From a virus (lineage: Duplodnaviria > Heunggongvirae > Uroviricota > Caudoviricetes), in the IMG/VR virus record IMGVR_UViG_3300001919_000205: a stretch of DNA of 4,226 nt. One strand, given 5' to 3'. The notes beneath the pieces were generated by a model. The model searched no databases, had not been told where the DNA came from, and worked only from the letters and a program-made list of their open reading frames with translations. The translations under genes were made by a program, and so were the position numbers. Shown piece after piece: positions 26 to 4,226 of this stretch. Every line of letters begins with the position of its first letter. Position 1 is the stretch's first letter.

Positions 26-115
26 AAACGTAATTAACTCAATAATCACCGGATGGTGAGAGCTTCCTTTTAGCAGAATTCAGCGCGGTGCAGCGCATAT
101 AAAGTGGAGAACGAA

Positions 116-652
116 ATGTCATTTATTAAAACTTTTTCCGGGAAGCATTTTTATTATGACAAGATAAATAAAGACGACATCGTGATTAACGATATCGCAG
201 TTTCCCTTTCAAATATCTGTCGCTTTGCAGGACATCTTTCACACTTCTACAGCGTCGCCCAGCATGCGGTGCTTTGCAGCCAGCTGGTACCGCAGGAATT
301 TGCTTTTGAAGCGTTAATGCATGATGCAACAGAAGCATATTGCCAAGACATCCCCGCTCCACTGAAACGCCTTCTTCCTGACTATAAACGGATGGAAGAA
401 AAAATAGATGCCGTAATCCGTGAGAAATACGGGTTACCCCCGGTTATGAGCACGCCTGTGAAATATGCCGATCTCATCATGCTGGCAACCGAACGCCGCG
501 ATCTCGGGCTTGATGATGGCTCTTTCTGGCCTGTACTGGAAGGCATCCCGGCAACAGAGATGTTCAACGTGATTCCACTGGCACCGGGCCATGCCTACGG
601 GATGTTTATGGAACGTTTTAACGAGTTATCGGAGTTACGCAAATGCGCATGA
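116..652 (+). CDS. yfdR: HD-domain phosphohydrolase, YfbR/YfdR-family 5'-deoxynucleotidase (CPS-53 prophage YfdR-like), 178 aa
   Basis: ORF track 104..652 uses a GTG at 104; the ATG at 116 (MSFIKTF...) sits behind GGAG (106-109) with a 6-nt spacer. Protein carries the HD motif ...EALMHDATEAYCQDIPAPLK..., closely resembling YfbR (HDASEVLTGDLPTPVK) as I recall it. The 178-aa length matches E. coli K-12 YfdR as I recall it. Confidence 0.85.
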   Translation: MSFIKTFSGKHFYYDKINKDDIVINDIAVSLSNICRFAGHLSHFYSVAQHAVLCSQLVPQEFAFEALMHDATEAYCQDIPAPLKRLLPDYKRMEEKIDAVIREKYGLPPVMSTPVKYADLIMLATERRDLGLDDGSFWPVLEGIPATEMFNVIPLAPGHAYGMFMERFNELSELRKCA

Positions 653-1903: not shown

Positions 1904-2475
1904 TGAACAACTTAATGATCGACCTTGAGACGATGGGGAAAAATAAGGATGCACCGATCGTTTCCATTGGCGCGGTGTTCTTCACTCCAGAAACCGGAGA
2001 CATCGGACAAGAATTCTATACGGTTGTTAGCCTGGACAGTGCTATGAAGCAAGGAGCTACACCTGACGGCGATACCATCCTGTGGTGGTTGAAACAGAGC
2101 TCTGAAGCACGAGCTGCAATCTGTATTGATGATACTTTGTCGATCAGCGATGCACTCTCTGAACTGAGCCATTTCATTAATCAGCATGCAGACAATACAA
2201 AATATTTAAAAGTCTGGGGTAACGGGGCCACCTTCGACAACGTAATTTTACGTGGAGCTTACGAGCGAGCAGGACAAATCTGCCCGTGGGCATACTGGAA
2301 TGACCACGATGTACGCACGATCGTTACGCTTGGGCGTTCCATCGGATTCGACCCCAAAATGGACATGCCTTTCGATGGCGAACGGCACAACGCCCTGGCC
2401 GATGCCCGTCATCAGGCAAAATATGTTTCCGCTATCTGGCAGAAATTAATTCCTGCCACCAGCACAGAATTATGA
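1903..2475 (+). CDS. DnaQ-like DEDDh 3'-5' exonuclease, 190 aa
   Basis: ATG 1903 overlaps the upstream stop (TGATG); GAGG at 1892-1895. Exo I motif MIDLET (D-x-E), Exo II WGNGATFDNVIL, Exo III H-x4-D (ERHNALADARHQAKY), typical of DEDDh exonucleases. ORF track start 1900 is a GTG 3 nt upstream. Confidence 0.85.
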   Translation: MNNLMIDLETMGKNKDAPIVSIGAVFFTPETGDIGQEFYTVVSLDSAMKQGATPDGDTILWWLKQSSEARAAICIDDTLSISDALSELSHFINQHADNTKYLKVWGNGATFDNVILRGAYERAGQICPWAYWNDHDVRTIVTLGRSIGFDPKMDMPFDGERHNALADARHQAKYVSAIWQKLIPATSTEL

Positions 2476-2511
2476 TTTTCCCAGGTGCAGCCGGTTTTGA
2501 TGGAGAAAATT

Positions 2512-2784
2512 ATGAACACCTTGTTTTTACTGATGGCTGAATTCAATACCCCTAACATTGAACTCTCAGCAGTTAGTCAAAAATACTTTGGTATGAGTCC
2601 AGCCACAGCAGAAGCAAAAGCAAACGCTTGTAAGTTGCCTGTACCTACATATCGCATCGGTACATCACAAAAAGCAAAACGCTGCATCAACATTCAGGAT
2701 CTTGCGGAATATATTGACAAAAGACGGGAAGAAGGGCGAGCTGAGTGGGAAAAAGTCAGAACGGAAAAACAAAAATATAACTAA
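2512..2784 (+). CDS. PrtN-family small DNA-binding protein (pyocin-activator PrtN-like; excisionase/regulator-like), 90 aa
   Basis: ORF 2485..2784; preferred start is ATG 2512 (MNTLFLLMAEF...) behind GGAG (2502-2505) with a 6-nt spacer. The MNTLFLLMA... opening and ~90-aa basic C-terminus resemble the PrtN family as I recall it. Followed by a terminator. Confidence 0.7.
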   Translation: MNTLFLLMAEFNTPNIELSAVSQKYFGMSPATAEAKANACKLPVPTYRIGTSQKAKRCINIQDLAEYIDKRREEGRAEWEKVRTEKQKYN

Positions 2785-2800
2785 ACTAAAACTATGGATA

Positions 2801-2831
2801 ACCCGTATATGTACGGGTTATTTTTCTTTAT
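2801..2831. terminator. Bidirectional intrinsic terminator between convergent operons
   Basis: Hairpin ACCCGTA (2801-2807) / TACGGGT (2812-2818) with loop TATG, followed on + strand by T-rich tract TATTTTTCTTT (2819-2829). The stop codon of the - strand gene (2818-2820) abuts the stem. Confidence 0.7.
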
Positions 2832-3366
2832 CACTATCTTTTCTTGATTTGAACAATCCACTAACAACGAAACCAACCAAACCAACAATACTAATTGTAC
2901 TTGTACCTAGTAATGCAACGATCGCTTCAACTGGAGGCTTTCCTTCATGTGCAATAAGAAACGATGTAAACATTGCGACAACGAATAAGCACCAACACGA
3001 CATAAACCAAACCGTGAATGAGGCCATTTTTGTCCGAAGCTCATTGTCTATTTCTTTACCAGTTGCGTCAGCTATCTTATCCCGTACTTGTGATTTGAGC
3101 ATATCAAGCTGAGCTTGAAGACTGTCCATTCTGTTCTGCTGCATAAACTCATGCAATGCACCAGTATTAGAACCAAACTCTTCTGCCTCCAGAATAGCTT
3201 TATTTTCTGAAGAAGAATCATCGTCGCTCTCATGATTAGACGGCTCAAATGCAGATTTAAAAACCTGTTCTTGACTGTCAGTAGAGTTTAAGGATGCTTC
3301 AGAGCGACCATTTTCAACACCTGCGGCCGCTCCGATAAGTTTATAAATATCTGAATTGTGAGACAT
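2818..3366 (-). CDS. Putative membrane effector/toxin: acidic N-terminal region, predicted amphipathic helix, C-terminal 2-TM hairpin, 182 aa
   Basis: ORF 2818..3366 (-), ATG at 3366 lying 21 nt downstream of the Panacea gene stop, with AGGGA upstream. Hydrophobic segments SFTVWFMSCWCLFVVAMFTSFLIA and AIVALLGTSTISIVGLVGFVVSGLF separated by HEGKPPVE; basic C-tail KSRKDSDKEK. N-terminus is acidic and Ser-rich (ESDDDSSSENKAILEAEEF) followed by QAQLDMLKSQVRDKIADATGKEIDNELRTK. No recognised family. Confidence 0.75.
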   Translation of the reverse strand: MSHNSDIYKLIGAAAGVENGRSEASLNSTDSQEQVFKSAFEPSNHESDDDSSSENKAILEAEEFGSNTGALHEFMQQNRMDSLQAQLDMLKSQVRDKIADATGKEIDNELRTKMASFTVWFMSCWCLFVVAMFTSFLIAHEGKPPVEAIVALLGTSTISIVGLVGFVVSGLFKSRKDSDKEK

Positions 3367-3387
3367 GTCATCCCTGAATATTACTTT

Positions 3388-3861
3388 TCAGAGGCCCTGA
3401 CATTGCTGTCGGTTATTCAATAAATCATGATAATAAGCCTTGATCGCATCATTTGAGATGATTGACGAGCCAATACCATTATAAGCTTGTGACCAAGGCG
3501 TACCTGGCATATGAGTTAGAGTTGATAACTCAATTCCATTTTTCGAGCCGTAAAACTTATAAACAGCCCCGATAATGCTCTCTGCTTGCGGATCCATAGT
3601 AACGATGCCACCAAAAGGAGCTACTGCTACATTCGTAACAGGTTTATTCCCATAGTCTTTGAAAGCATCGTACATTCCAGGAATAACTGGACCGTACTTC
3701 CACGCGGAGACACATTCATTGAGCAAAGGCTTACCTGTTAATGCTAAATAGTAACCATGGGCAATATAAGTAAGCTTCTGCAGTTGCATGTGGGTCAGAG
3801 GATTATGATGTTGGTTTCCCAACGTTATGAATTTATTGGCTATTTGTACCGGACTGTACAT
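3388..3861 (-). CDS. Panacea-domain (DUF4065) protein, putative antitoxin/immunity component (PanA-like), 157 aa
   Basis: ORF track 3388..3876; preferred start is ATG at 3861 (MYSPVQIANKF...) preceded by a perfect AGGAGG (complement of 3868-3873) with a 6-nt spacer. The track's ATG at 3876 overlaps that SD. Motifs LTHMQLQKLTYIAHGYYLA...PLLNECVSAWKYGPVIPGMYDAFKDYG match the Panacea/DUF4065 signature (LT..KLQKLLY.AQG...AW..GPV...Y) as I recall it. Confidence 0.8.
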   Translation of the reverse strand: MYSPVQIANKFITLGNQHHNPLTHMQLQKLTYIAHGYYLALTGKPLLNECVSAWKYGPVIPGMYDAFKDYGNKPVTNVAVAPFGGIVTMDPQAESIIGAVYKFYGSKNGIELSTLTHMPGTPWSQAYNGIGSSIISNDAIKAYYHDLLNNRQQCQGL

Positions 3862-3984
3862 AACCACCCTCCTCATTACACTGAATGTGCAAACAGTATC
3901 ATCACTGTTATCTCAACCTAACACGAACAAAAAAGTTTTGGAAGATTGCAAGAGCAATTCACTGTGTTTATAACCAGCAAATGA

Positions 3985-4000
3985 CTGTACATATACACAG
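3985..4000. promoter_or_regulatory. LexA-box-like operator (SOS box) CTGT-N8-ACAG
   Basis: CTGTACATATACACAG at 3985-4000: perfect CTGT / ACAG half-sites with an 8-nt AT-rich spacer (consensus CTGT-(AT)4-ACAG). It lies ~12-27 nt downstream of the predicted - strand TSS. A weaker adjacent match CTGTGTTTATAACCAG sits at 3962-3977. Confidence 0.45.
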
Positions 4001-4018
4001 GTTACAAATTGGTGGCGA

Positions 4019-4046
4019 ATTATACCTGCAGAAGTTGCGATGTCAA
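4019..4046 (-). promoter_or_regulatory. Consensus sigma70 promoter for the - strand Panacea/2-TM operon
   Basis: On the - strand: TTGACA (complement of 4041-4046), 16-nt spacer, TATAAT (complement of 4019-4024). Both hexamers match consensus exactly. Predicted TSS ~4012, giving a ~150-nt leader to the ATG at 3861. Confidence 0.6.
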
Positions 4047-4147
4047 CAAAGCGACCATCACAGTGTTTTGCATCTGACACTGTTATGACAAAAAATCTTT
4101 TGATAGGTTCCCAATAGGCTCCCACAAAACACATAACCAATTGTTTT

Positions 4148-4226
4148 TCAAAAACGATACATCCTATCGAGCATTGGTGCAACGCTAAACCGACCACTCC
4201 AGTGAACGTCAGTTTTTTCAGGCATT
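4148..4226 (-). pseudogene. dusA: Orphaned 5' fragment of host dusA (tRNA-dihydrouridine synthase A) truncated at the prophage att junction
   Basis: Reading the - strand from 4225: ATG CCT GAA AAA ACT GAC GTT CAC TGG AGT GGT CGG TTT AGC GTT GCA CCA ATG CTC GAT = MPEKTDVHWSGRFSVAPMLD, then RMYRF and TGA (4150-4148). The peptide matches the DusA N-terminal region with the Dus-family APM.D motif as I recall it; native DusA continues ...LDWTDRHCRYF. Similarity is lost below ~4165. Confidence 0.55.

Follow-up and report, generated by a model that had tools for sequence, protein, structure and literature searches.

The window analysed here, by which we mean the whole stretch of 4226 nt from the Caudoviricetes record IMGVR_UViG_3300001919_000205, comprises one end of a prophage and a short piece of the adjoining host chromosome. 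Near that end lie two minus-strand genes, panA and panT, encoding a Panacea-domain protein and a protein with two membrane helices; they are convergent with the early-left prophage genes, all on the plus strand. Features are collected in Table 1.

A sequence-only reading of this DNA had described two minus-strand genes 21 nt apart at 2818–3861, convergent to the phage operon, bounded by a terminator and placed just inside an attachment junction. Each element of that description was confirmed: the two ORFs occupy 3388–3861 and 2818–3366, a terminator-like hairpin is located at 2796–2823 and the junction falls at 4166/4167.

Table 1. Features of the window and layout of the PanT protein
Feature	Position	Strand	Description
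YfdR-like 5'-deoxynucleotidase gene		+	Early-left prophage gene
DUF551 protein gene		+	Early-left prophage gene
ea22-like gene		+	Early-left prophage gene; partly masked by N run 1464–1535
3'-5' exonuclease gene		+	Early-left prophage gene
PrtN-like excisionase gene	2485–2784	+	Last of the early-left prophage genes
Bidirectional terminator-like hairpin	2796–2823	both	Stem of 10–12 bp; between excisionase gene and panT
panT	2818–3366	-	182-aa membrane toxin, WP_021563277.1; allele of E. coli STEC O31 PanT
panA–panT spacer	3367–3387	-	21 nt, AAAGTAATATTCAGGGATGAC; AGGGA ribosome-binding site before panT ATG
panA	3388–3861	-	157-aa stand-alone Panacea (DUF4065) antitoxin, identical to WP_000287252.1
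panA ribosome-binding site	3867–3874	-	GAGGAGGG, read from the sequence; 5 nt before the ATG at 3861
Candidate panAT sigma-70 promoter	4019–4046	-	TTGACA-16 nt-TATAAT, 12/12 consensus; ~157 nt upstream of panA ATG
Displaced host dusA 5' end	4167–4226	-	Matches prophage-free E. coli genomes; co-oriented with panAT
PanT acidic disordered N-terminal region	residues 1–75		Hydropathy, charge, AlphaFold2
PanT juxtamembrane helix	residues 76–113		Hydropathy, charge, AlphaFold2
PanT TM1	residues ~114–136		Hydropathy, charge, AlphaFold2; followed by a short loop
PanT TM2	residues ~149–172		Hydropathy, charge, AlphaFold2; followed by a basic tail

Prophage and attachment junction

From 2700 to 4226 the window is 100% identical to the chromosome of E. 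coli strain 19-5, in whose genome the window is the right-hand end of a ~38-kb prophage. Prophage-free genomes such as that of K-12 BW25113 match positions 4167–4226 only, which sets the boundary between prophage and host. This host segment is translated as MPEKTDVHWSGRFSVAPMLD and diverges from dusA afterwards, the truncated frame ending in APMLDRMYRF and a stop codon. At its far end the prophage carries an integrase gene and a reconstituted intact dusA; panAT therefore occupies the end that is distal to the integrase in a prophage integrated in dusA. The pair sits at the extreme end of the element, with ~300 nt or less between it and the attachment junction. The displaced dusA fragment is co-oriented with panAT, and transcription from the promoter of the host dusA could read through into the pair.

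The run of 72 N at 1464–1535 interrupts the ea22-like gene, which is a single ORF of 269 aa in the identical genome where the masked sequence can be read. The two ORFs listed at 1005–1652 and 1559–1903 are therefore artefacts of the mask. A search of the window against Rfam gave no match.

Antitoxin and toxin genes

PanA matches the Pfam profile PF13274 (SocA_Panacea) with 66.3 bits (E 5.9e-18) over profile positions 1–112 of 113, against a gathering cut-off of 25.7 bits. This was the check that the sequence-only reading had named for its assignment of the upstream protein to the Panacea (DUF4065) family, and the assignment stands. The GPV motif of the family is found at G57-P58-V59 (...AWKYGPVIPG...). 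The RefSeq accession was taken from a 100%-identical genome, and the RefSeq start codon is the ATG at 3861; an alternative in-frame ATG at 3876 would add five residues. The best NCBIfam match is the SocA antitoxin model NF047745 (E 1e-27), where the 97 bits scored by PanA fall short of the equivalog cut-off of 190 bits. With PADLOC-DB v2.0.0, the sole match of PanA, with a type I restriction enzyme model at E 0.02, is spurious. Neither PanA nor PanT had a relative in the PDB when this was searched by sequence and by profile.

The partner had been described from the letters as having an acidic N-terminus and two C-terminal membrane helices, and it does: residues 1–75 of PanT contain 15 D/E against 4 K/R, and two hydrophobic segments, at ~114–136 and 149–172, exceed a 19-residue Kyte–Doolittle mean of 1.6. 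An AlphaFold2 model, computed from a 28-sequence alignment, has helices at 68–139 and 146–179 joined by a loop at 140–145, with low confidence (mean pLDDT 60, pTM 0.27). The protein is likely to adopt an N-in/C-in helical hairpin with the loop HEGKPPVEA on the periplasmic side, a predicted topology that we favour because basic residues flank the outer ends of the helices and the loop is short.

No Pfam, NCBIfam or PADLOC family matched PanT, and among all 28 members of its family Pfam gave only sub-threshold matches to DUF2975 and DUF2207_C. In PHROGs it belongs to phrog_13343 (E 1.9e-113), annotated as of unknown function. The family alignment is variable in its N-terminal half; there is hardly any variation in the motif G..IDN.LR..MA..T..FM..WC.FV or in the second membrane helix, ALLGTSTISIVGLVGFVVSGLFK. 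Some PanT alleles show a reciprocal swap in TM1, W120C with C124W.

Regulatory elements

The stop codon of panT lies inside the stem of the hairpin that separates it from the excisionase gene. Scanning 2400–4226 for terminators gave five terminator-like sites, with 1.5 expected. Upstream of panA, the TTGACA and TATAAT hexamers of the candidate promoter are kept in 5/5 diverged alleles, also where there are sequence differences closer to the attachment site. The pair thus probably has a strong constitutive promoter of its own at 4046–4019, as judged from its sequence, and the conservation of a perfect sigma-70 promoter suggests that panAT is expressed in the lysogen.

The hexanucleotide ACAGTG/CACTGT occurs four times in 3862–4166, with 0.11 copies expected. 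Two of the copies form an inverted repeat at 4056–4087, directly upstream of the -35 hexamer, and the other two are in the panA 5' leader, at 3903 and 3960. The copies may serve as arm sites for the integrase, or as an operator coupling panAT expression to the state of the prophage.

Relation to a published PanAT pair

Kurata et al. list WP_000287252.1 and WP_000019185.1 as PanA and PanT of E. coli STEC O31, with ‘Membrane’ as the mode of action (Kurata 2022, Table 1; PNAS 119:e2102212119; PMC8832971). Their Dataset S1 assigns this pair to toxin cluster T3, with no N-terminal domain, antitoxin before toxin, a distance of 22 and the result ‘TA’ (PMC8832971). We found WP_000019185.1 in the complete genome NZ_CP129263.1, adjoining the same PanA. 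The PanA of the window is identical to that neighbour at 157/157 positions, and the window PanT is identical to WP_000019185.1 at 175/182 positions in an ungapped alignment. In both pairs the antitoxin gene comes first and the spacing is the same; the flanking genes also agree in the genome with the STEC O31 toxin accession, including the PrtN-like excisionase gene next to the pair.

WP_000019185.1 is the allele that was tested, and the window allele, WP_021563277.1, differs from it by seven substitutions: V35A, K37E, S47R, V130A, A131G, T134V and S178G. Each of the seven affects a position at which family members differ, invariant columns being spared; three lie within TM1. The same pair is labelled ‘PanA antitoxin’ and ‘PanT toxin’ in GenBank record PV340566.1, of phage PhiR47_1 from ECOR13.

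We are highly confident that the window pair is the PanAT type II toxin–antitoxin module of E. coli, cluster T3, present as an accessory prophage pair in dusA. The sequence-only reading had suggested that the pairing might be undescribed. With an identical PanA and a near-identical PanT in the work of 2022, this claim to novelty fails: the pair is PanAT of STEC O31, cluster T3, and is annotated as such a pair in PV340566.1. The same reading's proposal of a toxin–antitoxin module with a membrane-disrupting toxin agrees with what is published for the identical PanA and the 96%-identical PanT.

The pair, its toxicity, neutralisation and membrane-pore action have all been in the literature since 2022. 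E. coli PanT is toxic in BW25113, and cognate PanA restores growth (PMC8832971). The toxin blocks transcription, translation and replication indiscriminately, like HokB and CCCP (PMC8832971); it causes strong depolarisation of the inner membrane, measured with DiSC3(5), and uptake of SYTOX Green, which the authors read as the formation of large pores (PMC8832971). A 10 x 10 cross-test matrix showed PanAs to neutralise their cognate toxins only (PMC8832971), and neutralisation was independent of ClpXP and Lon (PMC8832971). By analogy, given the identical antitoxin and 96%-identical toxin, toxicity, rescue and pore formation would carry over to the window pair.

Complexes of PanA with PanT were pulled down for five pairs other than that of E. 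coli (PMC8832971), so for the E. coli pair direct binding is something that we infer. The inference is supported by a comparable pair of Panacea antitoxin and membrane toxin, in which the stand-alone antitoxin contacts the unstructured N-terminal region and the pre-membrane helix of the toxin, an interface that was modelled and is supported by mutagenesis (Ernits et al. 2023).

Conservation, distribution and selection

A search of 5.8 billion proteins gave 67 relatives of PanT, with identities as low as ~32%, and those that are named are all from Enterobacterales. Loci for assessing co-conservation came from a contig scan (three loci), look-ups of exact proteins and a scan of viral contigs. 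Among IMG/VR viral contigs, 51/53 have a Panacea gene directly upstream of panT on the same strand; of the two exceptions, one begins at the end of its contig, where nothing upstream can be read, and the second retains just 32 codons of panT as a remnant. The same arrangement holds in 9/9 diverged lineages: two from Enterobacter, one each from Providencia, Pantoea, Erwinia, Pectobacterium and Buttiauxella, and two metagenomic phage contigs. Relative to the window, these nine are 34–66% identical in PanT and 43–59% in PanA. Co-conservation of the gene pair across genomes, which the sequence-only reading had put forward for checking, is thus borne out.

Within E. coli, panAT is present in 79 of 5426 complete genomes (~1.5%), each with one chromosomal copy adjoining a displaced dusA fragment. 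Over ten alleles, dN/dS is 0.07 for panA and 0.17 for panT. Both genes are thus under purifying selection and are not chance ORFs. Ten E. coli alleles encode three distinct PanA proteins and nine distinct PanT proteins. An apparent excess of amino-acid change in panT raised diversifying selection as a candidate explanation; it was rejected, since a dN/dS of 0.17 denotes a constraint weaker than that on panA.

The pair is also present in the phage records KF030445.1 and OQ243220.1, with PanT 94–96% identical; the phages that carry it are 1720a-02, from an O174:H21 strain, and phiSTEC1575-Stx2k, named as an Stx2k phage. A preprint of 2025 works with another carrier, PhiR47.1, as an infectious temperate phage.

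Proposed mechanism

Driven by its own promoter at 4046–4019, panAT would be expressed in the lysogen. PanT would insert in the inner membrane as an N-in/C-in helical hairpin, and its nearly invariant, Gly/Ser-rich TM2 probably drives oligomerisation into a pore. PanA, soluble and cytoplasmic, probably binds the acidic N-terminal region and juxtamembrane helix of PanT, which would prevent assembly.

A comparable system is PanAT from Bartonella apis / B. choladocola (cluster T12, NetFlax PanT D11). As in the window, a stand-alone Panacea protein is the antitoxin, and in the toxin a charged N-terminal region precedes membrane helices at the C-terminus; the toxin causes depolarisation and SYTOX-permeable pores, and the Panacea protein directly contacts the N-terminal region and pre-TM helix. 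T12 and T3 are separate clusters in the work of the authors, homology between them being uncertain.

Biological role

In P2-like prophages, several PanAT relatives occupy the variable region that separates the replication gene gpA from the portal gene, which has been described as a hotspot of antiviral systems (PMC9122126). The genes next to these relatives include those for CBASS (DncV-like cyclase and Cap15), for a reverse transcriptase of 586 aa, for DinI or for type I restriction–modification. Relatives directly beside CBASS, the 586-aa reverse transcriptase or type I restriction–modification genes are found at loci L024 (4051–5962), L014 (3964–5724) and L018 (3866–6495). In one P2-like prophage (locus L084, 2501–2602), a 32-codon 3' remnant of panT without panA follows gpA, adjoined by a gene for a 764-aa protein on the opposite strand; this looks like the replacement of cargo at a hotspot.

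Because no PADLOC-DB v2.0.0 model matched, sequence provides no link from panAT to a catalogued defence system. The label of defence or abortive infection given in the sequence-only reading was therefore not upheld by a PADLOC match, and the one line of support that it has is genomic context. Among the papers searched, none contained a phage-challenge experiment on this pair. Guilt by association makes an anti-phage role plausible, through abortive infection or the exclusion of competing phages; judged in this way, abortive infection or exclusion appears to be the most likely role, with prophage stabilisation as the alternative.

RosmerTA and similar membrane-depolarising defence systems offer a parallel. 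Like panAT they consist of two genes and are often phage-borne, and the RosmerTA-type toxin has a C-terminal membrane region and depolarises and permeabilises the membrane, as does the published E. coli PanT. Antiphage activity has been shown for the RosmerTA of a Gordonia phage, whereas a defence function for panAT is suggested by genomic context.

Stabilisation would amount to addiction by post-segregational killing: where PanA is lost, leftover PanT kills, and the dusA element is thereby retained. We think it somewhat unlikely that this is the main function of panAT. The pair is a validated toxin–antitoxin pair situated at the very end of the prophage, close to the junction, and Kurata et al. 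raised the possibility for PanATs near the junctions of mobile elements (PMC8832971). Addiction, however, needs an antitoxin that is less stable than its toxin, and the neutralisation that does not depend on ClpXP or Lon gives no sign of this, no instability of PanA being known; moreover, the relatives are found repeatedly as neighbours of defence genes in the cargo regions of prophages, which points to defence. The two roles are mutually compatible. We attach very little probability to a third possibility, that PanT is a holin-like protein of lysis or lysis timing and PanA its antiholin-like inhibitor. A small protein with two membrane helices that forms large pores does superficially resemble class II holins, but PanT has no holin family match in Pfam or PHROGs, and the prophage already has a complete lysis cassette ~14 kb away, with a lambda-family holin, a GH24 endolysin and Rz1 (locus L001, 5123–6471). 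These two observations make a lysis role unlikely and answer the one alternative, a known holin or lysis cassette, that the sequence-only reading had itself raised against its proposal. The pair is, besides, convergent to the phage operons with a predicted promoter of its own at the prophage end, and PanT is paired with a Panacea antitoxin in every case and with an endolysin in none.

A further rival concerns how PanA acts. In the type VI system SocAB of Caulobacter crescentus, whose antitoxin has a Panacea domain as PanA does, SocA acts as an adaptor for ClpXP, and the toxin, SocB, is soluble and blocks the replication clamp; PanA might similarly hand PanT over to ClpXP for proteolysis, as an adaptor and not a direct inhibitor. 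That its best NCBIfam match is the SocA model favours this, as does the remark of Kurata et al. that the two mechanisms are not necessarily exclusive (PMC8832971). We nevertheless regard it as quite improbable: the score is far under the equivalog cut-off, PanA neutralises without ClpXP and Lon, and PanT, a membrane protein, has no relationship to SocB. Direct contact is, moreover, the way in which one stand-alone Panacea antitoxin neutralises a membrane toxin comparable to PanT (Ernits et al. 2023).

Since the same antitoxin and a near-identical toxin were characterised in 2022, the scientific gain from this locus is small, and the interest that remains lies in its genomic context and in the question of phage defence. 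We tentatively propose that T3 PanAT may be a dedicated prophage anti-phage system, in which the Panacea antitoxin would sense a cue of infection and release the pore-forming PanT. Such a role would explain the recurrent placement of the pair as prophage cargo, at the dusA-proximal end here and in the gpA–portal region elsewhere.
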